This document shows, one piece after another, positions 4,685 through 60,561 of a DNA stretch of 64,000 nucleotides. The stretch is taken from positions 7,987 to 71,986 of the forward strand of contig JBGTCV010000089.1 in assembly GCA_041748655.1 (NCBI GenBank), written 5' to 3'. The translations under genes were made by a program, and so were the position numbers. The stretch's first letter is position 1, and the number at the start of each line of letters is the position of its first letter. The notes beneath the pieces were generated by a model, which worked only from the letters and a program-made list of their open reading frames with translations, searched no databases and was not told where the DNA came from. Source of the DNA: Candidatus Promineifilaceae bacterium. Its GTDB lineage: Bacteria; Chloroflexota; Anaerolineae; Promineifilales; Promineifilaceae.

Positions 4685-6416
<1,732 letters not shown>

Positions 6417-8093: not shown

Positions 8094-8172
8094 TGTAATT
8101 GAGTAACCGGGTAATTGGGTAATTGAACCAACAGCATAATTACCCAATTACTCAATTACCTAATTACCCTTT
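8094..8172. repeat. Family A heptamer-iterated palindromic element, copy 2 (between cmoA and cmoB)
   Basis: GTAATTGAGTAACCGGGTAATTGGGTAATTGAACC...AATTACCCAATTACTCAATTACCTAATTACC. It overlaps the cmoA stop and ends 8 bp before the cmoB start. Confidence 0.7.
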
Positions 8173-9631: not shown

Positions 9632-11727
9632 AACGCCAATAAATCCTCAATTTTTTGCCGAATTAAATCGACCGTCGGCACAACGCCCTCCATAAGCGAG
9701 GTGCTAAACGGCACGGGCGCAGCGGGAGCCGTCACTCGTTCCACCGGCGCGTCCAAATCCAGAAAGGCTTCGGCGACAACCGTGGCGGCGATTTCTGCGC
9801 CAAAGCCGCCCAGGCCAATATCCTCATGCACAATCAGGCAGCGGGACGTTTTTTGCACGGAGTTGAGCACCATCTCCACATCCCAGGGCACCAGCGTGCG
9901 CAAATCGATAATCTCGATGCTGGCATCTACGCCCTGCACCGCCTGCTCGCACCGCTCCACCATCGCCCCCCAGGTAACAATGGTTAAATCGCTGCCCGTG
10001 GTGATTTGTTTAGCCTGGCCAAAGGGGAGCAGGTAGTCGTCGCCGGGATACGGCCGTCTCGCCCAACCCGCATCCAACATGGCCCGATGCTCAAAAAAGA
10101 TGACGGGATCGTTGCCGCGCATGGCAGTACGCAGCAGGCCCACCGTGTCTTCCGCGTTGGAGGGAACCGCCAGCAGCCAGCCGGGCTGGTGGGCAAAAAT
10201 CACCTCACTGGTGACACTGTGCCACGGATCGCCAATCTTGCGATAGCCGCCGGGGATACGGACGATGATCGGGGCAGCAAAACGGCCGTTTGTCCGCCAG
10301 CGCACCGTGCCGCAATTATTGATCTGCTCCGTCGCCGGATCGGCATATTTGCGGAACTGGATTTCCGGCACGGGCACCAACCCCGCATACGCCAGCCCCA
10401 CCGAGCGGCCGATGATGCCCTCTTCGTTCAGGCTGGTATCGAAGACGCGGTCATCGCCGTACTTGGTTTGCAGGCCCAGCGTAGCGGCATGGACGCCCCC
10501 TTTCAGCCCCACGTCCTCGCCAAAGACCAGCAGGCGCGGGTTCAGCGCCAACTCCACGTCCAGCGTGCGCCGGATGGCTTCGATCATGTTGATGCGGCGT
10601 GGATCGGGGGGTTCCGCAACGGCCGTTCCCCCCGGCAGCTCTATCCCCTCAGCCACCAGACCGCCCACTTCCTGCGGCCGTTCCGGGTCGGAAAAGACAT
10701 ATTTTGTCACCGTGGCCGGATCGCCCTGCGGCTGGCGCAGCGCTTCGTCCCGCGCCTTCATCACGTCCCGCTTCGCCTGGTTACGCAAATTTTCCCACTC
10801 ATTTTCGCGCATCAGGGCAGGCACCAGATAGTCGTGCAGTCTGGTGATGGGGTCCTGCTTCCACTCGTCCGCCAGCTCTTTTTCGCCCTTGTACGCCTGG
10901 TTATCGACGCTGGAATGGCCAGAGAGCCGGGGCATCGTCAGGCGCAGCAGGCCGGGTCCATTGCCAGCGCGCAGTTCACGAACGGCCGTATGCACCAGTT
11001 CGGCCGTTTCTGCGGGGTTCGTGCCGCTGCCGTCCCAAATGGCCAGGTTTTTGAACGAGGCGAGATTGGCGGCGATATTGCTGCCCGGCGTTTGGGCTGG
11101 CCCTTTCACCGAAATGGCGTAGCCGTTGTCCTCGATGACAAACAGCAGGGGCAGCTCCAGCGTGGTGGCAATCGTCAGCGCACTCCAAAAGCCGTTGGTG
11201 GCCACAGAGCCATCGCCGCCAAACACCACCGAGATGCTGTCATCGACAGCGGCCGTTTTTAACGTCTCTTTGTGGTAGCGGATTCCCTGGGCCCAGCCCA
11301 CCGCCGGGGTGTACTGCGACCCCACATCGCCGGCCATCGGCAGCACCAGGGCCCGCTTGCGCCGGGGCAGATGGAACACCACGCCCACGTCTCGCCCGCC
11401 GCTCAGGCTGCCCGTGCGGGCCATGTCGGAGGCCAGCGCTTCCACCAACGTCAGACCAGAACCGAGCATAAACGGCCGTGAGCGGTAGTAGGCGCTGGCG
11501 GCGTCATACGGCCGATCCAGCAGCTGGCTAATGAGCAGCTGCCCCAGCTCATGCCCCCGCGCCGAAAATTGGTAAGTGACGAGGCCTTGCGGGGTGAGTT
11601 CGTTTTCTTCCAGTTCGTCCAAAATGCGGGAGGCCAATGCCAGCCGGGCGACTTCGTGCCAATCAAATGCGGGGTGCAGCTTGTTCAAGTGAGGTCTCTC
11701 CTGATTGAATCGTGAAAAGCGGAACAC
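9628..11727 (-). CDS. Fused 2-oxoacid dehydrogenase E1 component (alpha and beta subunits in one polypeptide, TPP-dependent)
   Basis: The N-terminal half resembles E1-alpha (TPP-binding GDG...N region). The C-terminal half has transketolase-like pyrimidine-binding and C-terminal domains (FGEDVGLKGGV, IIVRIPGG). 699 aa. Confidence 0.75.
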   Translation of the reverse strand: MFRFSRFNQERPHLNKLHPAFDWHEVARLALASRILDELEENELTPQGLVTYQFSARGHELGQLLISQLLDRPYDAASAYYRSRPFMLGSGLTLVEALASDMARTGSLSGGRDVGVVFHLPRRKRALVLPMAGDVGSQYTPAVGWAQGIRYHKETLKTAAVDDSISVVFGGDGSVATNGFWSALTIATTLELPLLFVIEDNGYAISVKGPAQTPGSNIAANLASFKNLAIWDGSGTNPAETAELVHTAVRELRAGNGPGLLRLTMPRLSGHSSVDNQAYKGEKELADEWKQDPITRLHDYLVPALMRENEWENLRNQAKRDVMKARDEALRQPQGDPATVTKYVFSDPERPQEVGGLVAEGIELPGGTAVAEPPDPRRINMIEAIRRTLDVELALNPRLLVFGEDVGLKGGVHAATLGLQTKYGDDRVFDTSLNEEGIIGRSVGLAYAGLVPVPEIQFRKYADPATEQINNCGTVRWRTNGRFAAPIIVRIPGGYRKIGDPWHSVTSEVIFAHQPGWLLAVPSNAEDTVGLLRTAMRGNDPVIFFEHRAMLDAGWARRPYPGDDYLLPFGQAKQITTGSDLTIVTWGAMVERCEQAVQGVDASIEIIDLRTLVPWDVEMVLNSVQKTSRCLIVHEDIGLGGFGAEIAATVVAEAFLDLDAPVERVTAPAAPVPFSTSLMEGVVPTVDLIRQKIEDLLAF

Positions 11728-11865: not shown

Positions 11866-12273
11866 TCAAGGTTGGTGCGTGGGGATGACGGCCGTTCCCC
11901 TTTCCAACTGTTCCTGATCCAAAGATACTAACTCCGCGCCCAACTGTTCAGCGACGGCGACGTAAAGCGCGTCACAACCCCGCAGCCGATGCCTGGCGGC
12001 AATTTCCGCCGCCCGAACGCCGAGAAAATCATCCACAAGAACCAACTCAATCACGCCTAACGCCTGTATCTGGGCCAGAACATCTTCGGCCAGTTGCGTA
12101 TCACCGGTTGACCGGCTAATCGCGCCCACTACTTCTGCCAAAAATGGCAGTGGCGCTGCCAAAGGCGTGCCGCTGGCCAAAGCATCGTTGTACCATTTCT
12201 GGCTGGCCGCATGATTTGGCTCTTCTTTTTTCAACATGGCCACGTACACAGATGCATCCAAAACAACGGTCAT
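11866..12273 (-). CDS. vapC: PIN-domain toxin VapC
   Basis: MTVVLDASVYVAML N-terminus with the conserved Asp. 135 aa. There is a 4-bp ATGA overlap with the upstream antitoxin gene. Confidence 0.8.
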   Translation of the reverse strand: MTVVLDASVYVAMLKKEEPNHAASQKWYNDALASGTPLAAPLPFLAEVVGAISRSTGDTQLAEDVLAQIQALGVIELVLVDDFLGVRAAEIAARHRLRGCDALYVAVAEQLGAELVSLDQEQLERGTAVIPTHQP

Positions 12274-12545
12274 AAATCACGCCTCTGCTCTTGAACGGCT
12301 TCGACCGCAGAAAGCGGCGACTGCCACGCTTTGGAAACCCGCTCCGCCATTTTGTTTAATTCGCTCATTAGATGATTGATTTCTGATTCGTCGTATTTGC
12401 GGGGTTGTTCTTCGGCTAACGGCCGTAACACCGCCACCGGCTCGCCATGCAGCGTCACCACGTACTCAGCCCCCTCTTCCCGCACCGCCCGCACAATCTT
12501 CGAGGCATTATTCCTCAATTCCCGAATCCCGATTTTTTTTGCCAT
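12270..12545 (-). CDS. Phd/YefM family antitoxin
   Basis: MAKKIGIRELRNNASKIVRAV...EYVVTLHGEPVAVLRPL matches the Phd/YefM fold signature. Confidence 0.75.
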   Translation of the reverse strand: MAKKIGIRELRNNASKIVRAVREEGAEYVVTLHGEPVAVLRPLAEEQPRKYDESEINHLMSELNKMAERVSKAWQSPLSAVEAVQEQRRDL

Positions 12546-12779
12546 TTCGCCTCCAGAGCAGACCCCAAGGGTTTGCTATCGTTAATTGTGCCTGCTTAAA
12601 GAAAACCCTTGGGGTCTTCACAACTAGCAAAATTGTAGCTACATGTAGCCACAAGTCAATCCCCCTGCCACACAAACCGGGGCATTTCAGTAGTCCAATT
12701 TTAGGACGCGGACCAGCGCAGATGACGCGGAAGGTTGCTTATTATCTGCGCTCGTCCGCGTTCATCCGCGTCCTATTGG

Positions 12780-15578
12780 CTAATCATGTGGACTTTTTGA
12801 AAAACCCTGCCCCACAAACCAACGACGCACCAACTCAATTTGAAAGCGCAAGCCGTCGCCGTGTGGCTCGATGAGTTCGCGCTGCTGGAGTTGGGTGATG
12901 GTTTGGTTGAACACGGCCGTTTCCACCCCACCCATCTCCCTCTCCAACTCGCTGCGCGAAACCGCCTGCTTTTCGCCAGCCTTGGCCAGCAAGTGCAGCA
13001 CCTCCCCCCCTACCCCGTCCGCCTGGTTGCGCATGTCGGCGAAGAAAAAGCTGCCGTGCATGAGCGCTTCGGGTACGGCCGTCTCCACATCCGCCACCGT
13101 GGCCAAGCGACGCTGCGCCGGGGGCTGTTCGTTTTTCAGGGCCACAATCTCGGCGCAAAGGAGCTGCACCAGAAACGGATGCCCCCGCGTCAGGTCCAGC
13201 ACCCGCTGGCTGGCGGCCGGTTCGTAGCGCAGGGCAAAGTTCTGCACCGGCGCTTCCACCAGCTGCCGCGTCTCGTCCGGGTGCAAAGTGCCGATGTGTA
13301 CCACCTGCACGTTGATCAGGTAGCTGGACCAGCGCGAAAATTCGGCCAGCGTGTGCGAGCCGGAAAGCAGCACCTTAAATTGGGGCCGGTGCTGGATCAG
13401 ATGGCGCAGCATCCCCAGCACAATTTCCTCATCAAAACGGTGCAAGGACAGCACCCGCTCCAGCGCCTCAAATTCGTCCAGCATCAGCAGCGCGGTTTGG
13501 CCACCCAGCGCCGCCTCCACCCCGTCCAGCCATTCGTCAAAGCGGGTGAACGGGTCGTCGTGCAGCTGCTCACGGCTGAGCGGCGGCAGCGCCACGCCCC
13601 GCTGCCGTTTGGCCGACTGCACCATGCTGCGGGCCACGTTGTACAAAAAGCCCGCCTCATCCTGCGCCCGCGAAGCCGGGCCCTGCAAATCGACAAACAG
13701 CGGCACGATACTGCTGGGCAGCAGCCGCCCCAAATTATTGAGCAGCGACGTTTTGCCCACACGCCGCTGGCCGTAGAGCAGCAGCGGCGGCTGGCGGCGG
13801 TCGAGCAGCAGCTGCTCAATCCGGCTGCTCACGTCCTGCCGCCCGATGAAAATCGCCTGCTCCGCCGTCAGCGGCACGCCGATGATGTATGGGCTGTCGA
13901 TCTCCTGGCGCAGTTCGGCTTCCTCGGCCAATCGCGCCCCCTTTTCGCCGATGATCTGCCGCCAGCTGGCTGCAATCGGGCGGAAGCGGGCGGCGTATGG
14001 CTCATTGCTGCGCGTTAATTCCCGAAGGAGCCCATCCAGCCGGTCCTCGACGGCGTGCAGGGCGAGGCGCCGGTTGTAGGCGCTCTCCTGCTGCAAGGCG
14101 GCGGCCACGTCGCTGCTGAGGCGGCTGAAGCTGCGCAGCAGGGCGCTGGCCGGGCCAACCAGATCCCCCGCCGCCAAACCGGGATGCACTTCGGCGATCT
14201 GAACAGCCGTTTTACACCGTTCCAACTGCCGCGCATCCAGCTCAATCTGGGCCGCCTGGGCTGCCCAACGCTGCCGCGTACTGCTCAAATAGGCCATTGC
14301 CGTGCGCCCTTCAGCCAGATTTTTTTGGATGGTGAGCAAAATATGGGCATCTAAATTCAGCAGCGGCAGCCGCTGAAACTCGTCCCAAAAGGCGGAATGC
14401 CAGCGCAGCAGCGGCCGTTTCTCTTTCTGGTCCGCCCGCTGCACATCCAGTTGGTACAAAATTCGGTTCCAGACCAGCAAAAAGGGGTAAAGCAGCACTG
14501 GCCGCCACCACGCCAGGGTCAATCCCAGCAAAATTCCGGCCAGACCAAACCACAAAAATGGCCCGTACGCCGTCCCCTCGGTGGCAAACAAAAAGAGACC
14601 CGCGCCGCTGCCCAGCGATCCGGCCAGCCCGCCCGCCCAGGTACCCGCAATCTTCTCGGCCAGGACGTAGGGCAGGGCAAAGAGTGCCGCCACAAAAGCG
14701 ATAAAGGCCAGCGCCTGGACCAGGCCACCCACGACTGCCGATGCATCGGCTTGTGTACTTGGTAACCCACCTGCCAGCCAGACGGCCGTTCCCACCAGCA
14801 ATCCCGCCAAACCACCCCGCCGCCAGCTCTGGCTGCGCCAGCCCACGGCCAGGCCAAACGGCAGCGCCGTCAGCAGCGCCGTCGCCCAGACCCCTTCCAG
14901 CAGCCGCGCCAAAAAGCCCGCCGCCAGCCCGATGAAGATGCCCACCACCATGCCGCTCACCTGCCGCAAAACGGAGACGCCGGGAACGGCCGTTTCCTGC
15001 ACCATCTCTTCCCGCGTTACCCCCACCCCCACGCCATAGGCCAACCCACCCGCCAGCCCGCTGGTCAGGCCGATCAGGCTGCTCACCACCACGTCTACCG
15101 CCAGGGGTACGCCGTTCAGCGTTAGATCGCCCGCCGCCCGCAGCAGCAGCGCCCCGCCCAACCCCAGCGTAAAACCGGTGGCCATGCCCACCGTCACGCC
15201 AATGGCCACGCTGCCCGCAATGCTGGCCGCCAGCCCCACAATCAGCCCCACGGCCACGCCCAGCATGACGCCCAGCAACAGCGTGTTAGACGGCACACCC
15301 AGCAGCCAGAGCAGCAGCCCCAGCAGCAGCCCAACCAGCAGGGGCCAGGCGAAAAAAGTCATGAGGAGGAAGCGGAGAACGGCCGTATTGCCCCACTGCT
15401 GCCGCTGCAAATCGGCCAGGCTAAAATAGGGGGAGAGGGTACTGTCGAGCCGTTTCAGGTGGTTGCGCCAGGCCGAAGGGTGAAAAAAAAGCCAAAACAG
15501 CAGCCGCACGCTGCCGGTCAGCAAATTGCCGGGCAGGGTTGGGGCGTCGGTGTAGCGGTCGCGTAAGGTATCACTCAT
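12780..15578 (-). CDS. Polytopic membrane protein fused to a coiled-coil region and a PF01637-type (archaeal-ATPase-like) P-loop NTPase domain with a C-terminal winged-helix-like tail
   Basis: The N-terminal ~400 aa are glycine-zipper-rich TM helices. The middle is Q/A/R-rich coiled coil. The motif IFIGRQDVSSRIEQLL...LLLYGQRRVGKTSLLNNL is the FxGRExEL ... GxRRxGKTSLL signature of the ATPase_2 family. Walker B LLMLDEFE. Confidence 0.6.
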   Translation of the reverse strand: MSDTLRDRYTDAPTLPGNLLTGSVRLLFWLFFHPSAWRNHLKRLDSTLSPYFSLADLQRQQWGNTAVLRFLLMTFFAWPLLVGLLLGLLLWLLGVPSNTLLLGVMLGVAVGLIVGLAASIAGSVAIGVTVGMATGFTLGLGGALLLRAAGDLTLNGVPLAVDVVVSSLIGLTSGLAGGLAYGVGVGVTREEMVQETAVPGVSVLRQVSGMVVGIFIGLAAGFLARLLEGVWATALLTALPFGLAVGWRSQSWRRGGLAGLLVGTAVWLAGGLPSTQADASAVVGGLVQALAFIAFVAALFALPYVLAEKIAGTWAGGLAGSLGSGAGLFLFATEGTAYGPFLWFGLAGILLGLTLAWWRPVLLYPFLLVWNRILYQLDVQRADQKEKRPLLRWHSAFWDEFQRLPLLNLDAHILLTIQKNLAEGRTAMAYLSSTRQRWAAQAAQIELDARQLERCKTAVQIAEVHPGLAAGDLVGPASALLRSFSRLSSDVAAALQQESAYNRRLALHAVEDRLDGLLRELTRSNEPYAARFRPIAASWRQIIGEKGARLAEEAELRQEIDSPYIIGVPLTAEQAIFIGRQDVSSRIEQLLLDRRQPPLLLYGQRRVGKTSLLNNLGRLLPSSIVPLFVDLQGPASRAQDEAGFLYNVARSMVQSAKRQRGVALPPLSREQLHDDPFTRFDEWLDGVEAALGGQTALLMLDEFEALERVLSLHRFDEEIVLGMLRHLIQHRPQFKVLLSGSHTLAEFSRWSSYLINVQVVHIGTLHPDETRQLVEAPVQNFALRYEPAASQRVLDLTRGHPFLVQLLCAEIVALKNEQPPAQRRLATVADVETAVPEALMHGSFFFADMRNQADGVGGEVLHLLAKAGEKQAVSRSELEREMGGVETAVFNQTITQLQQRELIEPHGDGLRFQIELVRRWFVGQGFSKSPHD

Positions 15579-15588
15579 TTCGGTTATC

Positions 15589-15652
15589 GGTAGGTCAGTA
15601 TTCAGTAGGTCAGTATTCAGTAGGTCAGTATTCAGTGGGTCAGTATTCAGTA
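15589..15652. repeat. 4.3 tandem copies of a 15-mer (plus-strand GTAGGTCAGTATTCA) starting 11 bp upstream of the membrane-ATPase start codon
   Basis: Perfect 15-nt periodicity; one copy has a single A to G change. Confidence 0.85.
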
Positions 15653-15838
15653 GAATGGCAGCTTCTTGGAAAAGTCTGTTTTCTTTTTAATGGGACACAG
15701 ATGGTTCGGCTGCGCTCACCACAAGCTTTCACAGATGAACACAGATTTTACTCAATTTTAGGTCAAATCTGTGTCCATCTGTGTGCGCAACTTGCGCCCA
15801 TCTGTGTCCAATTTTTCTTTCTCCGACAGGCCGCTAAC

Positions 15839-15890
15839 ACTGATAACTGATTACTGACCACTGATTACTGCTCACTGATTACTACTCACC
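15839..15890. repeat. About 3 tandem copies of a related 15-mer (CACTGATTACTGNNC) in inverse orientation to the 15589 array; overlaps the SARP gene stop
   Basis: The reverse complement CAGTAATCAGTG is close to the TCAGTATTCAGTAG unit of the other array. Confidence 0.75.
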
Positions 15891-17513
15891 GGCCATCCGC
15901 CGCAGCGGTTCCAGCTGGCGCAGCGCTTCTTCGCGCCAATCATCGCCCGTCTCGCCTTCGCTGAGGCTGAGCAGCCGCTCGCGGCACAAGATTTGCAGCG
16001 GCATGGGCCAACGGCCGCTTTCCATCAAAATCCAATCCACATCCCTGGGCGCAAATTTGAGCGGTGCGGTGGCGATCAGGCTGCGTGCCCCTTCTTCGGA
16101 GAGTGGGCCGAGAACGGCCGTATAGCCAAAAATGTTAAAAAAGGGTGATCCCAATCCCTGATGCTGGGCCAGTACGTCCGGCGGCTGGGCGCTGGAAAGC
16201 ACAAAACCGAGATTGCCGTCCACCTGATTGGTTGCCAGGGAGCGCAAACTTTCCCAAAAGGCATCATCCAGCTCCGGGTAGCGGGTTAGGGCCACCCCAA
16301 TTTCGTCGAACAAAATAACGGTGGGCTGGTTGAGCTGCTCGCTCACCACGTCCATAAAATTTTCCAAATCGCACGATTCAGGCACATCCAATTCCATTTC
16401 GGTCAGCAGCGTGCGCAGCAGCGTCTCCTGCCGCCCCAGCCGCGCATCCTGGAAATCCACAAAAATCCAGCGGGTGCCGCTCGCCTGCGGCAGCCAATCG
16501 GCCAGCCGCAAATAATGCAGCAGCGATGTCTTGCCGCTGCGGCGCGGCCCGATGATCGCCGCGTTTTGCAGCGGGCGCTGCCGCAGCATCAGCCCCAGCC
16601 GCTTCAGCTCCCGCTCCCGGCCAAAAAATTGCGCCGGATTGGTGATGGGCGGCCCAGCGATAAAGGGTGATTTGGTGACAGGGTGACGGCGTTCTGCGAA
16701 CGCTTGTGGCATGGTAACATTTTGTCCGGTCACCTTGTCAAATTCCCCACTGCGGATTTGCTGGTGGAGGACGGCCGTTTCCGCCGAAACCGCCACCCCC
16801 AGCTCAGCAGCCAGCAGCTGCTGGCACTGCTCAAACTGGTGCAGCGCGGCCGGGCGCTGGCCAGAAAGGGCCAACAGCTGCATCAGCAGGCGGTGGCTCG
16901 CCTCGCGGGTTGGTTCCAGAATGAGCAGCTGGCGGGCGGCGGCCACCCCCTCGTCGTACCGGCTTTGCTGCCGCAGCTGGCTGGCCCAGGCGTCGTGGGC
17001 GATAACGGCCTGGTTGTGGAACCAGCCGCGCTGTTCTTGCAGCCAGTTGTCGAATTCTGGAGCCTGCCGGATGTAAAACTCCTGCAAAAATTCACCGCGA
17101 TAGAGCTGAACGGCCGTTTGCCAGCCCCCGCGCTCTTTTTCGCCAATGTGAATGGTTTGTTGGAAAACGGCCGTGTCCAGCCAAACGGCCGCATCCGGGT
17201 TCAACCCCACGGTTTGATGGCTGATTTGCAGGTACGGCGCCAGCAGCTGGCGCAGCCTGAGGATGACGCCGCGCAGGTTGCGCCGGGCGTCGGACTCGGG
17301 CAGTTCGCCCCAGAGCAGGTTGGCTAAGGTGTGGCGGGAATGGGAACGGCCTGCACTGAGCGGCTCAACGGAGTTGAGCCTGCCGAAGTGGCCGCTCACC
17401 GCCAGGTAACACAACAGCGCCTGCGCCTTGCCCGAATCCAGCCCGATCAACGGTTCATCATCGATTGTGATCTGTAATGGCCCCAGCAGAGCCAGTTTCA
17501 GTACTTTTGTCAT
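15882..17513 (-). CDS. SARP (AfsR/DnrI/RedD)-family transcriptional regulator fused to a PF01637-type P-loop NTPase domain
   Basis: The N-terminal LALLGPLQITIDDEPL OmpR-type winged helix is followed by a BTAD-like helical region. Then FFGRERELKRLGLMLRQRPLQNAAIIGPRRSGKTSLLHYL (ATPase_2 signature) and Walker B ILFDEIG. Confidence 0.8.
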   Translation of the reverse strand: MTKVLKLALLGPLQITIDDEPLIGLDSGKAQALLCYLAVSGHFGRLNSVEPLSAGRSHSRHTLANLLWGELPESDARRNLRGVILRLRQLLAPYLQISHQTVGLNPDAAVWLDTAVFQQTIHIGEKERGGWQTAVQLYRGEFLQEFYIRQAPEFDNWLQEQRGWFHNQAVIAHDAWASQLRQQSRYDEGVAAARQLLILEPTREASHRLLMQLLALSGQRPAALHQFEQCQQLLAAELGVAVSAETAVLHQQIRSGEFDKVTGQNVTMPQAFAERRHPVTKSPFIAGPPITNPAQFFGRERELKRLGLMLRQRPLQNAAIIGPRRSGKTSLLHYLRLADWLPQASGTRWIFVDFQDARLGRQETLLRTLLTEMELDVPESCDLENFMDVVSEQLNQPTVILFDEIGVALTRYPELDDAFWESLRSLATNQVDGNLGFVLSSAQPPDVLAQHQGLGSPFFNIFGYTAVLGPLSEEGARSLIATAPLKFAPRDVDWILMESGRWPMPLQILCRERLLSLSEGETGDDWREEALRQLEPLRRMAGE

Positions 17514-17537
17514 GCGAATTGCGGGAAAAAACAGTCA

Positions 17538-17559
17538 GGATCAACGCTGGATCAACGCT
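17538..17559. promoter_or_regulatory. Tandem 11-bp direct repeat GGATCAACGCT x2, 25-45 bp upstream of the SARP start codon (divergent region shared with the TadE-like gene)
   Basis: Exact 11-bp period direct repeat, the spacing typical of SARP/OmpR-type binding sites. Confidence 0.35.
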
Positions 17560-17747
17560 AAAATGACAGCCCTTTGTTAATCTATACCCAGTGACTTAAT
17601 AAATTGCGCTTATTCCCTATGAAGGCAAAACGAAACGCACCCATAAAACCGTGCGTTTTGCTACCCTCACACGTCAATCCAGTATACCGGAAACAGCAGC
17701 TTGATGGAACTGATGGCCAACCAACAGATGCAAAGTGAACTGAAATC

Positions 17748-19832
17748 ATGATCAAATTCAAAAAACGATTCAAAGACTCCCCCGGACAAGCCCTGGTCGA
17801 ATTCGCCCTCATTATCTCTGTCCTCCTGGCGATGATCTTTTTGATTATTGAAAGCGCCCGCATTTTGTGGGCCTGGAACACCGTGCAAAACGCCGCCCGA
17901 GAAGGCGCGCGCTACGCCATCACCGGGCAGGCCGAAGGGCCAGATTGTCCCGTTGATTTTGGTCAGCCCAAATTTGTAGATGGTGGGCGTGATGTTTGTA
18001 CCAATTTACGGGTTGCTTCCATCATTAACAGAACCCACACCAGCCTGTCTGGCTTACCCTTAAACGAAGAGTCCGTTACGTTTGAAGATGGTCAATATTA
18101 CAATATTGAAATTTGGGGCGTGGATGAGTTTGGGCAGTTGCAATACGATTTTGGCGGCATCCCCAGCAATCCGGTTATTGTGCGCGTCACCTATCGGGTG
18201 CCCATCATCACCCCGTTCTTTTCAGCTATTTTGCCTTCTATTCCCGTATTCGGGCAGGAAACCTTGAACAATGAAACGTTTGGCCAGTTGGGTGGCGCCA
18301 GCAGCAGCGAAGGGGCCGCCCTGCCGCCAAACCTGCCACCGGTACCCACGCCGGGCGTTACCCCTTCGCCCACGCCTACCCCCCTCCCAACCGACACGCC
18401 AACGCCGGGGCCAACCGAGACCGCCTCCAGCACGCCAACCTTTACCCCAACCCCGCGCTGTGATCTGGAGTTTGAAGGAGGAGCCATTGCCGGGAATAAC
18501 TTTGTTTTTGTGACGGGTGATGTAGGCATTAACGTGACCATTATTAACCTTTCCACCGGGCAAACCCTGGGCTCGGGCACGCTGGGTGGACCGTTTAATG
18601 GACATGCCTGCGCAGGTTTTAGCGCCATCATTTTAAATCCGGCACTGACGGTGGCCAATCTGGGCCATGTGTTGGTAGCGCAGCAAACAGACGATAGCAC
18701 CAACAACGACACAACGATTGTCGTGGGCACGCCGCCAACGGCTACTCCGTCGCCTACACAAACCCTGGTGCCCACCAGCACCCCCAGCCCCACGCCGCCG
18801 CCAACGCTCACGCCCACGCCCAGCGGCCCATATATCACCATTGCGCCCAACTGTGGGCCGGGGCCCAACATTCAATTTATCTTGCAGGCATACAACTGGC
18901 CTGTTAATCAGTCGGTCACTTTTTTCTGGGAAGGTGTTTCCCAGGCGACCTATCAGGCAAACGCGCACACCGGCACGTTTACGCTGGGCTGGTCCTTCTC
19001 TGGGCTTGGCAATGGCACTTATACGGCCAGCGCCCGGTCTGGCGTCAATGGGGCAACCGCCTCGGCGCTTTATACCGTCCCCTGCGCAGGGCAGCCCACG
19101 CCGACAGGGGCGCCAACAAACACACCGGTTCCTGCTGATCTGGTAGCCATTGGCCCCCCCACCCTGCTGAGCACCCCCCCCATTGTGGCCTACCAGCCGG
19201 TGCAGTTCTCCGTCAACATCACCAATACGGGTGACATCGCCGTAAATAACCAATTCTTTGTCGATATTTATCTGGATCCCACCACCATTCTGGCGGATCG
19301 CATTCCGCTGACGGAGAGTGATGGTTATTCGGCCGTGAGTGGCCTGCCCGGTGGCGAAAGCCGAACGGTCATCATCAACGCCCCGTTTGGCTTTGAGAAC
19401 AGCCCAACCAACCATCAGGTGTATGGCATGGTTGATTCGGTTTTGCAGATTCAGGAAGTGAGCGAAACAAACAACGTCACCAATCCGCGCACGGTGTTGA
19501 ACGTTACCCCGGCAGCGACACCCACACCCACACCCACGCCAAACATCGTTGGGGATAGTGAGATTAGCGGAGTGGTATTCGCACTTAGAGGGACTTACCT
19601 AAGACAATTCCGAGCCGATGTTTTCTTAACTGACGAAAGCACTTCCCAAATAGTAAGTAGAACAACTACAGATGAAAATGGTTTCTACATTTTTGATACC
19701 GTTCCGGTCGGAACATACACCGTGCACGCCTGCATAGTGATTGACAATTCACAATATTTTGGCCTTCGTACTGGTCGAACACCGCCTAATCCGTATGTAG
19801 ATATTTTTGCTGCACCAGGAGCTTGCCCTTAA
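17748..19832 (+). CDS. Giant TadE-like (Flp pilus assembly pseudopilin-like) protein with Pro/Thr linkers, a CARDB-like domain and a C-terminal carboxypeptidase-regulatory-like domain
   Basis: N-terminal GQALVEFALIISVLLAMIFLIIESARILWAWNTVQNAAREGARYAITG is the TadE signature. PT-rich linkers. VAYQPVQFSVNITNTGDIAVNNQFFVDIYLD resembles CARDB. C-terminal FLTDESTSQIVSRTTTDENGFYIFDTVPVGTYTVHA. Confidence 0.7.
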   Translation: MIKFKKRFKDSPGQALVEFALIISVLLAMIFLIIESARILWAWNTVQNAAREGARYAITGQAEGPDCPVDFGQPKFVDGGRDVCTNLRVASIINRTHTSLSGLPLNEESVTFEDGQYYNIEIWGVDEFGQLQYDFGGIPSNPVIVRVTYRVPIITPFFSAILPSIPVFGQETLNNETFGQLGGASSSEGAALPPNLPPVPTPGVTPSPTPTPLPTDTPTPGPTETASSTPTFTPTPRCDLEFEGGAIAGNNFVFVTGDVGINVTIINLSTGQTLGSGTLGGPFNGHACAGFSAIILNPALTVANLGHVLVAQQTDDSTNNDTTIVVGTPPTATPSPTQTLVPTSTPSPTPPPTLTPTPSGPYITIAPNCGPGPNIQFILQAYNWPVNQSVTFFWEGVSQATYQANAHTGTFTLGWSFSGLGNGTYTASARSGVNGATASALYTVPCAGQPTPTGAPTNTPVPADLVAIGPPTLLSTPPIVAYQPVQFSVNITNTGDIAVNNQFFVDIYLDPTTILADRIPLTESDGYSAVSGLPGGESRTVIINAPFGFENSPTNHQVYGMVDSVLQIQEVSETNNVTNPRTVLNVTPAATPTPTPTPNIVGDSEISGVVFALRGTYLRQFRADVFLTDESTSQIVSRTTTDENGFYIFDTVPVGTYTVHACIVIDNSQYFGLRTGRTPPNPYVDIFAAPGACP

Positions 19833-21176
19833 ATGAAAAAGAGAGTGGTCTATTTAACTTTTGCATTTGCATTACTAATGGTTTTCAGCCAAATAAATAT
19901 CGGTACGGCCGTTGCTGAACCGGATGCCCCCTTGGCCCCTTCTGCGGCGCCAAACTGGAATAATTTGGGAGTGATCTCCCAAAGCAGCGGTATTACATCT
20001 GCTATTACCCCGGCTATTGCTGCTTCCAGTACTGGAAGCAAGGTGATTGTTGTTTACAACGGGGTTATTAATAACAATCTAGATAATCAAGATGTGTTCT
20101 ATACAACTTCGACTAATTACGGCGCAACCTGGCCAACAAAAGCTCGCATACATCAAAGCATCGGAGACCAATTAAATTCCACCTTTGTAGATGTGACAAT
20201 TAGCCCGAATAATAAAGGACATGCTGTTTGGATCGAAAAACTTAACAGCATTCCCAGGCTTGCATACAAATATGAAGACAACTGGGGCAATAACACCACA
20301 AATCTGGTGATAATTTCTTCAGTGCCATCATTAACAGACACATTATCAGAACCTAAAATTGTCGCCAAAAGCAATAATCGGCTCGACGTTGTTTGGGCAG
20401 AAGGCACAGCTGCGACAGACATCAATATTTTTCATGCTTACTCCACTAATGGTGGTAGCAGCTTCACTGGTAAAACGGCCGTTGCCCAAACAATCCCTTC
20501 CTCCAGATCGCCGAGTATAGCAATTGACGCTGCAGGAAATTACCACCTTGTCTGGGAAGAATTAACCAACCCCTCCAGGATTTTATATTCTCGTGGGGTA
20601 CCATCTGGCAATAGCGTCATCTGGTCTGTTCCACCGATAAACATTTCAGTCAGGAGTATTCCAGGCAATACCACGGCCGCAAGGCAACCCAAAATATATG
20701 CCGACGGGAACGTCCTGCATGTAACATACGCTAATTTTATCAACAAGCAGCAGCAATTTGTTCACCATTTACAGTGCAATTCAGGCTGTACCAATGCAGC
20801 AAATTGGGTGTCGGTGGGTAATCCGATCTCTGGACAAGTTCTTTCAGCAAAAGCATCAGATCCATTTGACCTTATTTCTACCATTGGCCAGATTGGAAGA
20901 TGCACCTATGTTTATTTCCACGGCATCCAGGGTGACAGCAGTAATGAAAATAACCGGGAAAGAATTTGGGGCACAAATAGCTGTGGCAACTGGGCAGCCA
21001 GCGTACGTGATCACGTGACGACAGCGGACGTACGCTCGATCAATCCGGCAATGGTTTCGGCAAATAATTGGTGGCTGTTTATGGCTTATGAACAAGTAAA
21101 TACCAATGCAAGTCTGCGAGAAATTTATTTTGTGCGCAACCAACCGGCTATTTATTTGCCGACAATATTAAAGTAA
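19833..21176 (+). CDS. Secreted BNR/Asp-box repeat protein (sialidase-like beta-propeller)
   Basis: Signal peptide followed by Asp-box-like repeats TSTNYGATW, YSTNGGSSF and further S-x-x-G-x-x-W motifs. Confidence 0.5.
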   Translation: MKKRVVYLTFAFALLMVFSQINIGTAVAEPDAPLAPSAAPNWNNLGVISQSSGITSAITPAIAASSTGSKVIVVYNGVINNNLDNQDVFYTTSTNYGATWPTKARIHQSIGDQLNSTFVDVTISPNNKGHAVWIEKLNSIPRLAYKYEDNWGNNTTNLVIISSVPSLTDTLSEPKIVAKSNNRLDVVWAEGTAATDINIFHAYSTNGGSSFTGKTAVAQTIPSSRSPSIAIDAAGNYHLVWEELTNPSRILYSRGVPSGNSVIWSVPPINISVRSIPGNTTAARQPKIYADGNVLHVTYANFINKQQQFVHHLQCNSGCTNAANWVSVGNPISGQVLSAKASDPFDLISTIGQIGRCTYVYFHGIQGDSSNENNRERIWGTNSCGNWAASVRDHVTTADVRSINPAMVSANNWWLFMAYEQVNTNASLREIYFVRNQPAIYLPTILK

Positions 21177-21182
21177 TCAACC

Positions 21183-21860
21183 ATGAATCGATTAGAGTGG
21201 ATTTTAGGCATTATTTTGGTGGTTTTACTACTGGTGGTAGGGGCGCTGTCGCTGACCTTCTGGTTCCGCAATGACCGCACGGCCGTTTCCTCCCCCAACA
21301 CCGCCGCCAATTCTGCCACCATCATCGCCCAGCGCGCCGACGACATCGCCCCTACGCCGGAATACGACGGCCGTTCCGCCATTGTCGCCTACGCTGCTGC
21401 TCAAAACCGGGCACTGGAGTGGCAGCCAGACGCCCAGCTGCTCAACACCCAGGCCACCTGGCCCCAGGGAGCTACCGCCGACTATTTGCGCCAGGGCACA
21501 GAAAGCTGGGGCTTTACCTTTTACTCGCCCGCTGCCGGGCGCATCGCCCTCTTTTCGGTGGTGGCAGACCAGGTTTCCCTGATCACCGAAGGGGACCACA
21601 CCCAAACCGAGCCGCTCCTTTCGGCCAGCGGCTGGAATCTGGACAGCCACGAAGCGGTTCGTGTTTTCCTGGCGGGTGGTGGCAGTACGTTTATGGCCGA
21701 ACAGGGAGTCACAACCATGACAATGGCTTTATTGGCGAGTGATGGGGAGGAAAACGGCCGTCTCGAATGGCAGCTCGCTCTCTTTTCACTCCAAACCGGA
21801 CAGGCCTTCACCATGCGGCTAGATGCCACTTCCGGTGAAATCCTCTCCACCAACCCGTAA
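21183..21860 (+). CDS. Membrane-anchored hypothetical protein (single N-terminal TM, extracytoplasmic domain)
   Basis: LGIILVVLLLVVGALSLTFWF TM helix. No recognizable family. Confidence 0.4.
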   Translation: MNRLEWILGIILVVLLLVVGALSLTFWFRNDRTAVSSPNTAANSATIIAQRADDIAPTPEYDGRSAIVAYAAAQNRALEWQPDAQLLNTQATWPQGATADYLRQGTESWGFTFYSPAAGRIALFSVVADQVSLITEGDHTQTEPLLSASGWNLDSHEAVRVFLAGGGSTFMAEQGVTTMTMALLASDGEENGRLEWQLALFSLQTGQAFTMRLDATSGEILSTNP

Positions 21861-21915
21861 TCGTCAGGCTTATCGTAAATCTAAAATCGTAAATCGTAAA
21901 TTCAGAGGCAAAACA

Positions 21916-23178
21916 ATGAAACAGCAACAAACAACCCCAAAACAGTCTCAACGCGGCCAAAGTCTGGTCGAAGTCGCCCTCTTTTTCCCCATCTTTATCC
22001 TGTTACTGGCGGGGCTGGTCGAGGTTTCCCAGCTGCTGGTCACCCAAAACCGGGTCAGCAGCGCCGCCCGCGCCGCTACCCGCTTCGCCTCCAATGGTGG
22101 GCAGGATGAAGGGATTCCCACCTCCGTCCTCAACACCGTTACCCAGACGCTGGAAATTGACGAAAATGTTTGGGATATCTGGAGCATCCGGGCTACTGTC
22201 AATGCCAACGGCTCAGATTTTGTACAGTGGCAGTTTACCCACGTCTATGGCGTCTCCAACACGGTTCGTGCCCCATCGGTAAGTGAGCAAGCGATTCGCA
22301 CCCGCGTACTGGAAGAACTCCAGCGGGATGAACTTGATAACCCGTCAAATACCATCGCACAAAATCTGCAGATCGTGGGCACCTACGCCATTCATGACGT
22401 CGATTCCATCCTGGGATTGGATGCCATGTCCCAACTGGCTGGCTTCTCTTCTATCAACGCCCTCAGCGTCATGCGCATTACCACCAATACCCAGAATGTC
22501 ACCAATGGCTGTTCCGCCTTTCCTATTGCGGTTGAAGAAGGTGCACGTTCTGTCACTAATCCTTTGCTTGGCGGTTCAAATCCATACCCAAGCAATTTCT
22601 CCTATCCGCCCAATCCTCCAGTTTATAATTCCTTTGCTAATCACCGGGACGATACACCACTGCTGCACGCACGAGAAGGGGATGTTTTCCGAATTTGGAA
22701 TGGCGCGGGCAGCGGCAACTTTGGCTGGTTGGTCTGGAATACCGGGGTCTCGGCCAATGCAAACACCCTGGCCAACAGCCTGTCGTGGCCGGGGGACAGT
22801 ACCAATTACAACCCCTGCAGCGGTCCCGGCTGCCCTGGGGGCCAAGGCATCCCTGGTTCCGGATTTGATACAAACGTGCCCGGCTATATTGAACCCGACG
22901 ACCCCACTGATCAGTCCCTGCACATAAATGATTGGGTGGCAGGCAGTACGGGAACTGTAAGTTCCAACGACGTAAATACCATCCTTAAAGGGCATATAGA
23001 CCGGGGGCGGACCCTACGGGTGATTGTTTGGAAGGCACCGGCCACCGGCACCGGCAGCAACGTCCGGTATCAAATCTCGGGCTTCGCTATCGTTCGTCTG
23101 ATTGGTTACCATCTTCAACAAGATTGGATTCTGGCCGAGTTCATCCGCTGGGACGACTCCTGCGGCCAGCTAAATTAA
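21916..23178 (+). CDS. TadE-like pseudopilin-like protein with a large C-terminal extracellular domain
   Basis: From the internal Met: MKQQQTTPKQSQRGQSLVEVALFFPIFILLLAGLVEVSQLLVTQNRVSSAARAATRFAS is TadE-like. The longer upstream ORF extension overlaps the previous gene. Confidence 0.65.
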   Translation: MKQQQTTPKQSQRGQSLVEVALFFPIFILLLAGLVEVSQLLVTQNRVSSAARAATRFASNGGQDEGIPTSVLNTVTQTLEIDENVWDIWSIRATVNANGSDFVQWQFTHVYGVSNTVRAPSVSEQAIRTRVLEELQRDELDNPSNTIAQNLQIVGTYAIHDVDSILGLDAMSQLAGFSSINALSVMRITTNTQNVTNGCSAFPIAVEEGARSVTNPLLGGSNPYPSNFSYPPNPPVYNSFANHRDDTPLLHAREGDVFRIWNGAGSGNFGWLVWNTGVSANANTLANSLSWPGDSTNYNPCSGPGCPGGQGIPGSGFDTNVPGYIEPDDPTDQSLHINDWVAGSTGTVSSNDVNTILKGHIDRGRTLRVIVWKAPATGTGSNVRYQISGFAIVRLIGYHLQQDWILAEFIRWDDSCGQLN

Positions 23179-23297
23179 CGAATCACGACGCCTTTCGTGC
23201 CACGCGCGGCGTGGTACGAAAGGCCAAGATGCTCTGCATCATATAACAGATATTAATCGAACCAAAAATCGTCGGATGATCAAACAGGGTTAAGCAT

Positions 23298-25223
23298 ATG
23301 AACCGTATCAAACAGTTTATCCAACAAAAACAGCAGGCCAATGACCAGGAAAAAGGGCAAAGCATCGTTCTCATCGCCCTGATGATGGTGGCCATCATCG
23401 CCTTCGTCGGCATTGCCGTCGATGTCGGCTTCATCTTCGCCCGTGGCTCCCAGCTTCAGGCCGCCATCGACTCGGCTGCGTTGGCGGGTGTCGTCGAACT
23501 CCCTGGCTGGAGCGAAGGTAATGCAGGCAATCCAGCTCTGGAAGGAAACGCCCGCACCAGATCGGCCCAATTCCTCAACGCCAACAACATGCCTGTTTCG
23601 GTCACCGCCTCCATCAACATCCCTAACAACATCGATGTCTCCACCACGCCGCTGGGCGCTACCCAATACGCCGTCACCGCTACCTGGCCTGTGGAAACCT
23701 ACTTTCTTAAAGTGATCGGCTTCCGCGAACCGATCAACCTGACCCGCTCCGCTACCGCCGCCATTTTCTCGCTGGCCGATATTTACGCCAGCCGCCGGGT
23801 GGAAGATGGCGTCCTCAGCACCTCCAACCAGGGCATCTTTGGCCCCGCCTCCTGCACCCACATGGGCGACCCGTTCTCCCCCATCATCAGCGCCTGGGAA
23901 CCCGGCCCCTATACCTACACTTACCGTATCTACATTCCGCCCAACTACAGCCACAATGTGGTGCGTGTGGAGCTGTTCGACCCAGACTCGATCAATACAG
24001 CTCTCAACACAGCCACCATTAACCGCTCCTTCACAGCAATCAACAATGGATTGGGCGCAATTGATTCCAAAACGTGCGGCACGCATGGCGGCAACGCAAG
24101 CCAGCATCAGCCCTGCCTGCTGCGTACCGATGAACTTACTTTAGTCAATAATGCACCAAATCTGGATTTAGACCAGGTGAACCCCTACTGGTTTGTTCGC
24201 ATTGATGAAAACCGTCGGCCGCCTACTACCCCGGGAGGCGGCTGTGGCGAAAATGGCTACAGGGTAGAAAACAACACCCAAACCCGCTACAGCCTCTCTT
24301 ACTTCGCCCAAACGCCAGGAAGTTCACCTGTAAAGATCCCCCTCGTCAGCTACTTCGGCCAGACTGGTGATGCACGCGACACGGTCATGTATGGCGGCTC
24401 TCCTGGAGACCATCTAACCGATTTACGCTGGGTTTCGCCGGGAACGGCCGTTCCCTTCTCCACCGTCGATGATCCCGGCGTGGCCGTACCCGCCACGCCC
24501 CAAACCATTAGCAGCTTTGAAGTCAACCTCACCACCGACGTGCCCAACATGGTGGTAGACCAAAATACCGGCGCGCGGTATATCTACCTGGACGTACAGG
24601 CGATGAGCGGCTCTTCGGAAAATGGCTTTGAAGTGTGGGCCGGCCCCCCCACTTACGTCAATACCGTCCCCAGCGACGTCAACGCCCGCAACCTGCACAT
24701 TCTCAACAACCCGGGTGCCCACTCGTCCCAAGGCGTCACCGTTTACGGCCTGGGCAACCTGCCCATGAACTCCAACTTTGGCGAGATCGTTGATGTACCG
24801 CTGCTTTACGTCGGCCCCGATATGATTGGCCAATCTATCCAGGTGAGTATGTTCGATACAGATTCTGGGGCGGCTCCTCCTCTCGTCTTTTACTTCGACT
24901 CGCTTGCCTTTACCCCCAGCACCACCAATCCGCTGGGCTATAATCCTGCCCTAACCGACTGGGCCCGTTCTTTTCACGTGAGTGGGCAGCCAGACCCAGA
25001 AGGCCAAACCTTCCCCTGCGTGCTAGGCAGTTGTGATAATCGCTGGGTCAATTACACAATTACCGTTCCAGGTAATACTGACAACTGCGATTACAACAAT
25101 CAAACCATGGCCGACTGTACCCCCTTCTTTGGTGGTCGTCTTATCGCCCGCTACCGTGCCGGTTTCTCAGACACCTACGGCTGGCAAATCAGGCTCGAGG
25201 GGCTGCCCTATTTGGTGAAATAA
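23298..25223 (+). CDS. TadG-like (putative Flp pilus-assembly TadE/G-like, PF13400-type) protein with a large C-terminal domain
   Basis: N-terminal QEKGQSIVLIALMMVAIIAFVGIAVDVGFIFARGSQLQAAIDSAALAG. 641 aa. Confidence 0.65.
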   Translation: MNRIKQFIQQKQQANDQEKGQSIVLIALMMVAIIAFVGIAVDVGFIFARGSQLQAAIDSAALAGVVELPGWSEGNAGNPALEGNARTRSAQFLNANNMPVSVTASINIPNNIDVSTTPLGATQYAVTATWPVETYFLKVIGFREPINLTRSATAAIFSLADIYASRRVEDGVLSTSNQGIFGPASCTHMGDPFSPIISAWEPGPYTYTYRIYIPPNYSHNVVRVELFDPDSINTALNTATINRSFTAINNGLGAIDSKTCGTHGGNASQHQPCLLRTDELTLVNNAPNLDLDQVNPYWFVRIDENRRPPTTPGGGCGENGYRVENNTQTRYSLSYFAQTPGSSPVKIPLVSYFGQTGDARDTVMYGGSPGDHLTDLRWVSPGTAVPFSTVDDPGVAVPATPQTISSFEVNLTTDVPNMVVDQNTGARYIYLDVQAMSGSSENGFEVWAGPPTYVNTVPSDVNARNLHILNNPGAHSSQGVTVYGLGNLPMNSNFGEIVDVPLLYVGPDMIGQSIQVSMFDTDSGAAPPLVFYFDSLAFTPSTTNPLGYNPALTDWARSFHVSGQPDPEGQTFPCVLGSCDNRWVNYTITVPGNTDNCDYNNQTMADCTPFFGGRLIARYRAGFSDTYGWQIRLEGLPYLVK

Positions 25224-25407
25224 CCCACCAGCAGGAATACCAATGTCTTAAAGACATTGGTATTCCTTTGTAGTACACTGTTTTTTATTTGTACTGGAAT
25301 TTACTCAGGTGCAAGGCACTGGCCTCGGGAGTTTCAATTGGTTGGAACCGTTTGGCCAGTGCCTCGCACCACTCTTACTGGAATTTAATGAATCAAAAGG
25401 CATCTCA

Positions 25408-60543: not shown

Positions 60544-60561
60544 CGTGGGTCCTTCCTGATT

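Follow-up and report, generated by a model that had tools for sequence, protein, structure and literature searches.

A conserved pair of paralogous NTPases, one constant and polytopic, the other with exchangeable N-terminal heads: a candidate membrane-to-output module of filamentous bacteria

In bacteria as in animals, plants and fungi, NTPases of the STAND/NLR type have a central part in immunity and in regulated cell death, and to our knowledge the bacterial ones known so far are, with few exceptions, single-chain proteins whose sensor is C-terminal. Paired arrangements, with sensing in one partner and the output in the other, are represented by NAIP-NLRC4, by the plant sensor NLRs with their NRC helpers and by MalK-MalT. 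Here we describe a locus from Candidatus Promineifilaceae bacterium (contig JBGTCV010000089.1) in which gene A, coding for a SARP-type regulator joined to a P-loop NTPase, lies next to gene B, coding for a polytopic membrane protein with a related NTPase. The analysed stretch of 64,000 nt is referred to as the window, and coordinates are positions in it unless a locus of another genome is named. The A-B module differs from the single-chain systems in that the job appears to be split between two paralogous NTPases, the constant partner being in the membrane. With a probability of roughly 0.55, we read A and B as a two-protein NTPase module in which a membrane cue is linked to an exchangeable output, which in the window would be the transcription of a pseudopilin-like operon.

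The described systems closest to this pair are the nSTAND1 conflict systems, the AfsR-type large SARPs and the archaeal ATPase_2 proteins. In the main text of the work on nSTAND1 proteins these are single chains composed of an effector, the NTPase and a C-terminal sensor of FGS or repeat type (PMC8195603). The systems swap N-terminal effectors (TIR, EAD, peptidase, kinase), use EAD-EAD coupling to a neighbouring trypsin gene and are concentrated in filamentous or multicellular bacteria (PMC7159879; PMC8195603). The large SARPs of Streptomyces have the order SARP-NOD-TPR, and the NOD of AfsR gates the SARP domain through ATP (PMC10936776). SARP dimers occupy two 11-bp direct repeats side by side; in the Streptomyces boxes the periodicity is 11 bp (or 22 bp), and 8 bp separate the 3' repeat from the -10 element (PMC10936776). 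The archaeal ATPase_2 proteins (2qen, 2fna) are stand-alone proteins of unknown function, with neither a membrane nor a DNA-binding fusion. We take the two structures, of PAB2304 (2qen) and SSO1545 (2fna), as the solved representatives of PF01637.

Genes A and B are minus-strand open reading frames (ORFs), A upstream and B downstream (Table 1), in agreement with the first-pass annotation of the window, which was made from the sequence alone and called them a two-gene module. The closest homologs of both are found in filamentous Chloroflexota (Ardenticatenaceae, Promineifilaceae, 'Ca. Leptofilum'); orthologs of A are 53-100% identical over the full length, and full-length homologs of B are 57-91% identical, or 42-66% in other phyla. 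A scan of one genome per species gave 79 loci of B, and tblastn and ORF calling served to place the A, B and Tad protein domains on them. The majority of these loci belong to filamentous Chloroflexota, 17 to filamentous cyanobacteria (Microcoleus, Oscillatoria, Tychonema, Nostoc, Calothrix, Stigonema, Coleofasciculus and others) and 12 to giant sulfur bacteria (Thiomargarita, Parabeggiatoa, Marithrix and related), the module being common to these three great filamentous lineages. Pairing was counted in the 65 non-redundant B loci whose upstream flank extends over 1.6 kb or more, and a gene for an A-type NTPase precedes B on the same strand in 62 of them. It lies within 1.5 kb of B in 59-60 of the 62, and the genes often overlap. 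A reverse scan of metagenomes, anchored on the A NTPase, found B downstream in approximately 18 of 21 informative loci. Co-occurrence in other genomes, on which the proposal of a module had been made to depend, thus extends over three phyla, and we consider the pairing tight and ancient. In addition, the NTPases of A and B vary together across loci in their identity to the proteins of the window (r = 0.97), and the juxtamembrane domain and NTPase of B are 48-72% identical across phyla. Searching with the membrane module of B added many further filamentous cyanobacteria and no unicellular cyanobacterium among the best 120 hits, in which the module is almost always fused to the NTPase; the scans are pattern-biased.

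As judged from their sequences, the NTPases of A and B are paralogs. The motif FxGR...GxRRxGKTSLL, noticed at first pass as a shared P-loop signature, is indeed present in both proteins, and BLASTP aligns the segment SPFIxGxP...FxGR...GxRRxGKTSLL with 39% identity. Alignment of the two NTPases with hhalign (probability 98.5%, E 3.6e-15, 218 columns) spans the Walker A, Walker B, GPLxxxEAR and GxxP..LQxLC motifs and includes a conserved pre-NTPase motif, for which the two monomer models show disorder. The Walker A and Walker B motifs are intact in both proteins and show no variation within either family.

The two NTPases had been assigned to the Pfam ATPase_2 family (PF01637), and this stands at the level of fold, the best PDB matches of both in Foldseek being the archaeal Walker-type/AAA+ ATPases 2qen and 2fna. 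It does not stand by the Pfam gathering threshold (33.2 bits), which neither A (23.4 bits) nor B (17.1 bits) reaches, although some orthologs of both carry precomputed PF01637 hits. The fold matches that follow are NB-ARC, ORC/Cdc6, MalT and CED-4, with NRC also listed; for the A NTPase the order is 2qen, then NLRs and Cdc6/ORC. B passes Pfam AAA_22 and, narrowly, nSTAND1 (PF20703; 29.1 vs 27.1 bits, residues 572-907), and some of its homologs are named 'nSTAND1 domain-containing NTPase' by NCBI. A remains below the nSTAND1 threshold and has no winged helix, so that the nSTAND1 or tripartite-module assignment applies to B only. Profile searches therefore leave the pair in the ATPase_2/nSTAND1/ORC-STAND neighbourhood and not in an unrelated family. 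The N-terminal FxGRxxEL motif and the GxP motif are common to A, B and the archaeal ATPase_2 proteins; A and B differ from the latter in the low family scores and in their fusions.

The SARP-family architecture of A, an OmpR-type winged helix followed by a BTAD, was proposed at first pass and is borne out by profiles and by the structure model. Pfam finds the BTAD (E 1.7e-18) and several P-loop families, each of the latter below its cut-off, and gives no score for Trans_reg_C in the window's A (this domain was found in 5 of 98 A-family representatives). A profile of 60 A orthologs matches the AfsR SARP domain (8k60; E 3.8e-15, positions 5-266) and EmbR (E 7e-11). The AlphaFold2 (AF2) model of A, with a predicted local distance difference test (pLDDT) score of 87.7, superposes on the AfsR SARP domain in Foldseek with a template modelling (TM) score of 0.78-0.80, and EmbR matches too. 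The model has the winged helix and BTAD (1-263), a disordered linker (264-290) and the NTPase with a four-helix lid, and no winged helix after the NTPase. Residues F284 to I290 of the linker are invariant or near-invariant despite a pLDDT below 50, and a counterpart of its SPFIAGPPI motif also precedes the NTPase of B. The NTPase, which is the conserved core of the A family, has the motifs GPRRSGKTS (Walker A), ILFDE (Walker B) and GRWPMPLQILC (GxP-like). Neither Pfam nor AF2 revealed a TPR or other C-terminal sensor in A, which ends after the NTPase lid at residue 543. Like the AfsR-type SARPs, A has a SARP domain followed by a P-loop NOD. Unlike them it lacks the TPR, its NTPase is of the ATPase_2/nSTAND1 type without a winged helix, and a membrane paralog is encoded next door. 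The neighbourhood, as far as its genes were examined, showed no antibiotic gene cluster, and the NCBIfam AfsR model scores A at 24.6 bits against a cut-off of 1430, which does not make A an AfsR ortholog.

The N-terminal part of B agrees with the glycine-zipper-rich multi-transmembrane domain seen at first pass. By hydropathy, residues ~61-380 are rich in Leu, Gly, Ala and Val and contain 22 GxxxG motifs, corresponding to approximately ten transmembrane helices; the AF2 model of B (pLDDT 82) shows about 11 long helices in this part, with the stretch 65-380 at high pLDDT. The invariant residues are mostly Gly, Trp and Pro, and in cyanobacterial B the region becomes a period-4 GVAW repeat. At the locus of Oscillatoria sp. 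PCC 10802 (L054) the repeat is a near-perfect GVAW/GVAF. The following residues 381-557 had been taken for a long coiled coil, which they are not: the model has a multi-helix juxtamembrane domain here, 48-95% identical in nearly all loci and phyla and conserved beyond the transmembrane part. After a linker that is disordered in the model come a nucleotide-binding domain, a helical domain and a winged helix with a beta-hairpin, and the NTPase carries GQRRVGKTS (Walker A), LMLDE (Walker B) and RGHPFLVQLLC (GxP motif). Neither A nor B has a C-terminal FGS, TPR, WD40 or other repeat sensor, both ending directly after the NTPase module. A PDB sequence search with B and its family profile gave no match, and PADLOC and NCBIfam contain no informative family for B.

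While the B side of the pair is constant, the N-terminus of A is exchanged between lineages. An exhaustive search with the A NTPase at E <= 1e-30 gave 220 family representatives; in every one of them the NTPase forms the C-terminal part, with 25-1030 residues before it. For 98 of these representatives a Pfam census, counted regardless of B adjacency, lists CHAT (9), BTAD (9), HTH families (~8), TIR_2 (6), Pkinase (5), Trans_reg_C (5), GerE (3) and EAD1 (3). The SARP head is limited to an Ardenticatenaceae-like clade. With B adjacent, A has a short helix-turn-helix (HTH) head in cyanobacteria, Parabeggiatoa and Anaerolineales, a TIR_2 head in loci L024, L085 and L096, an Mrr-type restriction nuclease head (Mrr_cat) in L088 and an EAD2 head in L073. 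Most B-linked A proteins have DNA-binding heads, and some genomes contain two copies with different A heads (L032/L080, L027/L035, L034/L059). Because the pairing persists while the A head varies, B is taken as the constant component and A as the carrier of the output. At L073 (7561-12850) a Trypsin_2-EAD2 gene is followed by the EAD2-A NTPase and then by B, an arrangement that corresponds to homotypic EAD coupling as given in the main text of Kaur et al. (PMC7159879). The metagenome-assembled genome with L073 carries the label Enterobacteriaceae, which seems doubtful.

With its constant NTPase core, variable effectors (TIR_2, Mrr_cat, EAD2, EAD1, CHAT, Pkinase) and EAD coupling, the family has the hallmarks of a conflict system. 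It resembles the nSTAND1 systems in the swapping of N-terminal effectors, in the EAD-EAD coupling to a trypsin gene next door and in an apparent concentration in filamentous and multicellular bacteria, which here comes from pattern-biased scans. It is unlike them in having no C-terminal sensor, in consisting of two paralogous NTPases, of which B is constant with a polytopic membrane domain and A lacks the winged helix, and in A heads that are mostly DNA-binding. The wording 'signalling or possibly defence' of the first-pass annotation catches a real ambiguity, as relatives replace the SARP by TIR, Mrr nuclease, EAD2, CHAT or kinase. Our reading is that of a generic signalling core, wired by lineage to transcription or to suicide effectors, with a transcriptional copy in the window.

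A candidate target for the SARP head is found between A and the divergent Tad-like genes. Approximately 25 loci have these five Tad-like genes in unchanged order and divergent from SARP-A, with 26-80% identity, and 23 non-redundant intergenic regions between A and the first Tad-like gene (A-Tad1) were aligned to obtain a footprint. Two tandem 11-bp direct repeats, in the window two copies of GGATCAACGCT, are recognisably conserved in the 23 regions (consensus GATCAACGCTn), with substitutions in a few loci and diverging flanks; two copies are typical and three are present in L018, L078 and L083. In 17 loci the exact tandem motif is present, each time as a single occurrence that lies in the A-Tad1 region, and the 64-kb window as a whole has one such site. 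It was not found upstream of SARP-type A in loci without the Tad neighbour (L004, L026). We regard it as a candidate SARP box or operator that tracks the Tad-like operon; tandem 11-bp direct repeats would be a target as in the AfsR-type SARPs. The segment ARRNLRG...LR of A (residues ~76-88), invariant or nearly so in the 60 orthologs, is read as the recognition helix, and its conservation fits that of the repeat box. The SARP fold and the conserved box together support the proposal that A is the cognate DNA-binding NTPase of the pair, DNA binding itself being predicted from these features.

On the 3' side of the repeats the footprint continues as nnAnTG(A/G)CA, the alignment consensus being ..A.TGaCA....T.tg.TAa..T with fixed spacing, and a -10-like hexamer (TAATCT or TAAGAT) follows 18 bp after the repeats, towards the Tad genes. 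The TGACA was tried as a -35 element and rejected, lying only 9-10 nt from the hexamer. A further near-invariant element, the palindromic CCAGTATACCGGAAAC, is -10-like on both strands (TATACC towards the Tad-like genes, TATACT towards A), and the remainder of the A-Tad1 region is unconserved. In the presumed leader of the first Tad-like gene there is a small hairpin (AAAACGCAC...GTGCGTTTT, window 17628-17662).

In the mechanism favoured here, B would be the constant membrane partner with its approximately ten glycine-zipper helices, juxtamembrane domain and cytoplasmic NOD-type NTPase with winged helix, and A the soluble paralogous NTPase with the output domain at the N-terminus. A cue registered by the membrane and juxtamembrane part of B, whose N-terminal half is the sole candidate input because neither protein has a classical C-terminal sensor, may alter the nucleotide or oligomeric state of the B NTPase. 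This NTPase might then engage that of A and nucleate A oligomerisation, like sensor/helper NLR pairs, or it might release A from sequestration, like MalK-MalT. In both variants the N-terminal heads of A would be brought together or freed, and the conserved disordered pre-NTPase motif of A and B is a plausible docking element. In the window, the SARP head would bind the two 11-bp repeats (17538-17559) as a side-by-side dimer, and A at the box could act on the divergent promoter region, turning on the TadE-like pseudopilin/adhesin operon with probable feedback on gene A. In other lineages the A-B core would drive HTH, TIR, restriction-type nuclease or EAD2 heads, the last recruiting a trypsin-like protease, and possibly CHAT or kinase heads. 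The likeness to the sensor/helper NLRs and to MalK-MalT is a working analogy only: NB-ARC, NRC, MalT and CED-4 are among the fold matches, but there is no orthology, A and B have no LRR, TPR or WD40 sensors and B is an integral membrane protein.

Several points weigh against this mechanism. B stands without A in L013 and in the Thiomargarita loci L038 and L045. The role of the B membrane domain as a sensor is an argument by elimination, starting from the lack of a C-terminal repeat or FGS sensor. It is awkward that an A protein recruited to the membrane should at once bind DNA, and the release variant is favoured for this reason. No canonical sigma-70 promoter was detected in the A-Tad1 region, a lack that is expected of an activator-dependent promoter, and the box is 18 bp from the -10-like hexamer vs the 8 bp typical of Streptomyces SARP boxes. 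Finally, because the box sits 24-46 nt upstream of the A start codon, the role of an autoregulatory operator is equally possible.

Glycine zippers are common in pore-forming membrane peptides, and the pair may also be seen as anti-phage or abortive-infection defence, in which the NTPases would detect infection, the membrane domain of B would be a pore-forming killer and the A head a second effector or a regulator. The TIR_2, Mrr_cat and EAD2 heads with B adjacent (EAD2 with the trypsin-EAD2 gene beside it), and the CHAT and kinase heads counted in the family regardless of B adjacency, match the effector repertoire of NTPase conflict systems in the main texts of Kaur et al. (PMC7159879; PMC8195603). 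DNA-binding heads, however, and not toxic enzymes dominate among the B-linked A proteins, and there would be redundancy in combining a constant pore-former with a second effector that varies. The occurrence in multicellular bacteria, again as in the systems of Kaur et al., the match of B to Pfam nSTAND1, the genomes with two differently headed copies and the kinase-FGE protein at the Oscillatoria locus all suit a defence role, whereas the inter-phylum identity of the juxtamembrane domain and NTPase is very high for an arms-race gene, a variable sensor domain is absent and histidine kinases or cyclases are inserted at or beside some loci. Moreover, the locus of the window's clade is single, syntenic and vertically inherited among housekeeping genes, which is not the picture of a defence island. 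Relatives of B were found neither in the viral contigs nor in the plasmids searched, and PADLOC-DB 2.0 gave hits in the P-loop region only (PDC-S27, PDC-S01; best E 1.8e-5, partial coverage). Defence is, on balance, an unlikely explanation that still carries some weight.

The order of events could also be the reverse, B being an anti-activator that holds A at the membrane by an NTPase heterodimer (cf. MalK-MalT), and loss or modification of B through membrane damage, proteolysis or growth state would free A to self-associate and act. A transcription factor has to leave the membrane to reach the chromosome, a constant partner of toxic heads such as TIR and nuclease agrees with the logic of a guard or an antitoxin, and mutual docking could be served by the disordered pre-NTPase motif conserved in both; the sequence data, however, look alike for inhibition and activation. 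Obligatory inhibition by B is argued against by loci with A and no B downstream (L104, L116), because the A of L116 is of the TIR type, has no B in 2.7 kb downstream and would be lethal. We hold this polarity to be decidedly doubtful. It is very improbable that the adjacency is meaningless, A being a stand-alone large SARP regulator and B an unrelated membrane ATPase. The 303 nt between A and B in the window, with a very stable hairpin that could terminate transcription, and the genes found between A and B in some loci, one for a PAS/GAF histidine kinase at L004 and one for a DDE transposase at L085, would agree with it. The co-occurrence in 62 of 65 loci from three phyla, with often overlapping stop and start codons, already contradicts it, as do NTPases that are paralogous and co-inherited and a pairing that survives the complete change of the A head.

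A further idea is speculative and rather unlikely: the pair would be a cell-integrity or membrane-state surveillance system specific to filamentous multicellular bacteria and a bacterial counterpart of the sensor/helper NLR pairs. B would register envelope damage or a change of state, NOD-NOD hetero-oligomerisation would switch A on, and A would either reprogramme transcription (SARP, HTH) or kill the cell (TIR, nuclease, protease). Filaments could in this way respond to, or sacrifice, compromised cells.

The first-pass annotation considered the module to be without a described counterpart, and a limited literature search returned no published description. The combination of a polytopic-membrane NOD with a variable-head NOD is not described in the main texts, supplementary tables aside, of PMC7159879 and PMC8195603, and it was not found in a 2026 survey of STAND NTPases, in a paper on bacterial NACHT proteins or by keyword searches. 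Of the VMAP, iSTAND, FtsH, beta-propeller, GAP1-GTPase, NucA, EACC1-caspase and TRADD-N systems and the nSTAND2 pair, none matches its anatomy as far as the main texts go. We regard the A-B pair as a new variant related to STAND/NLR-like systems, with a core reused for transcriptional and for lethal outputs. If the coupling is true, it would offer a tractable system for studying how NODs of a pair communicate, with homologs in Nostoc and Calothrix; some Nostoc strains are genetically tractable. It would also provide a candidate membrane-state sensor for multicellular bacteria and a prediction of regulator, operator and operon for the large surface-protein cluster of wastewater Chloroflexota.

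Table 1. Features of the A-B locus and of the adjoining Tad-like cluster (window coordinates)
Feature	Position	Strand	Basis
Gene B: polytopic membrane NTPase, 932 aa	12780..15578	-	ORF; stop codon 12780-12782
B residues 558-932: linker with SPYIIGVPL, NTPase, helical domain, winged helix (NOD module)	12783..13907	-	
B residues 381-557: juxtamembrane helical domain (LLRWHSAFWDE...SRQRWAAQAAQIELDAR)	13908..14438	-	all-helical in model
B residues 1-380: conserved N-terminal segment (YTDAP...LLFWLFFHPSAWRNH) and predicted ~10-helix transmembrane bundle with glycine zippers	14439..15578	-	
A-B spacer, 303 nt, palindromic	15579..15881	.	repeat analysis, RNA fold
Gene A: SARP-NTPase, 543 aa	15882..17513	-	ORF; stop codon 15882-15884; Pfam BTAD
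A residues 291-543: P-loop NTPase and helical lid	15885..16643	-	Pfam, AF2, profile alignment
A residues 264-290: flexible linker ending in the SPFIAGPPI motif	16644..16724	-	pLDDT <50
A residues 1-263: SARP domain (winged helix ~1-112, BTAD ~113-263)	16725..17513	-	AfsR profile, Foldseek
Candidate SARP box: two tandem 11-bp direct repeats, GGATCAACGCT twice	17538..17559	+	
ATGACA block (17563-17568) and -10-like TAATCT (17578-17583), towards the Tad-like operon	17563..17583	+	
Near-invariant palindromic CCAGTATACCGGAAAC element	17679..17694	.	alignment consensus AgtAtAc
Five-gene TadE-like cluster, putative regulatory target (TadE-CARDB, 694 aa; 447 aa, BNR-like by the L001 ortholog; 225 aa; TadE, 451 aa; Tad/TadG-like, 641 aa)	17748..25223	+	Pfam, synteny

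The neighbours named at first pass were recovered by Pfam: a Phd/PIN toxin-antitoxin pair, together with a fused E1 dehydrogenase, downstream of B, and a cluster of very large TadE/Tad-like proteins divergently upstream of A. The context is chromosomal and syntenic, and the housekeeping neighbours in the window's clade include a ribosomal protein cluster, mraZ and the E1 dehydrogenase. The Phd/PIN pair (window 11866-12545) and the fused dehydrogenase have the same order in L002 (12847-13526), where B is 68% identical; because the order is the same in a relative with so divergent a B, the toxin-antitoxin pair is considered a stable neighbour and not a recent insertion. The proteins encoded by the Tad-like cluster (window 17748-26838) are unusually large. 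Their TadE-type N-termini are fused to CARDB and carboxypeptidase-regulatory-like domains, and BNR/sialidase-like (by the L001 ortholog) and CBM6/CBM35 proteins are also present. No pilus ATPase or platform gene was seen among the ORFs examined, for which reason 'pilus' may be the wrong word for this cluster of surface proteins.

The spacer between A and B is as ordered and repeat-rich as the first-pass annotation described it. Tandem 15-mers (15590-15653; the 15-mer is present four times) and heptamers (15838-15893) in inverted orientation flank nested inverted repeats, and the RNA fold has -122 kcal/mol with a z-score of -11. We do not count the spacer as part of the module. Orthologous loci have A-B gaps of 0-91 nt or overlapping genes, and the spacer is an incidental insertion specific to the window's genome. 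An Rfam scan of 12000-18500 gave chance-level hits only and thus no known RNA family, a terminator scan of the A-B region gave nothing beyond chance and no other copy of the central spacer element is present within the window. Other intergenic regions (6361-6415, 8095-8169, 59220-59270, 60559-60635) contain 7-8-nt tandem repeats followed by their inverted complement, and such paired inverted tandem repeats in the window would form long regular hairpins. They look like a genome-wide class of repeat element, and because similar repeats occur in these regions, the spacer is interpreted as a repeat-element insertion typical of the genome. Its hairpin may terminate or stabilise the A transcript and uncouple the expression of A and B, in the window's genome only.

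Additional genes were noticed at some loci of the pair. A PAS/GAF histidine kinase is inserted between A and B in L004 and L005 (5911-9327), and a DDE transposase in L085. At the Thiomargarita loci without A (L045, 6409-9822; L038, 8832-12260) a dCache-HAMP-kinase-receiver-adenylate cyclase protein is encoded upstream of B and a periplasmic-binding/MscS/cNMP-binding channel downstream of it. In the Nostoc loci L064 and L070 (~9500-9670) the A-B gap of approximately 700 nt contains a conserved opposite-strand ORF of 56 aa with a hydrophobic centre, which could be a small membrane protein or simply reflect the conservation between close relatives. Three genes lie upstream of the HTH-A/B pair of Oscillatoria sp. 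PCC 10802 (L054, 2728-12352). One codes for a B paralog of 540 aa that has the membrane and juxtamembrane portions but lacks the NTPase, another for a fusion of a protein kinase with an FGE-sulfatase domain and the third for a major vault protein/SPFH-like protein.

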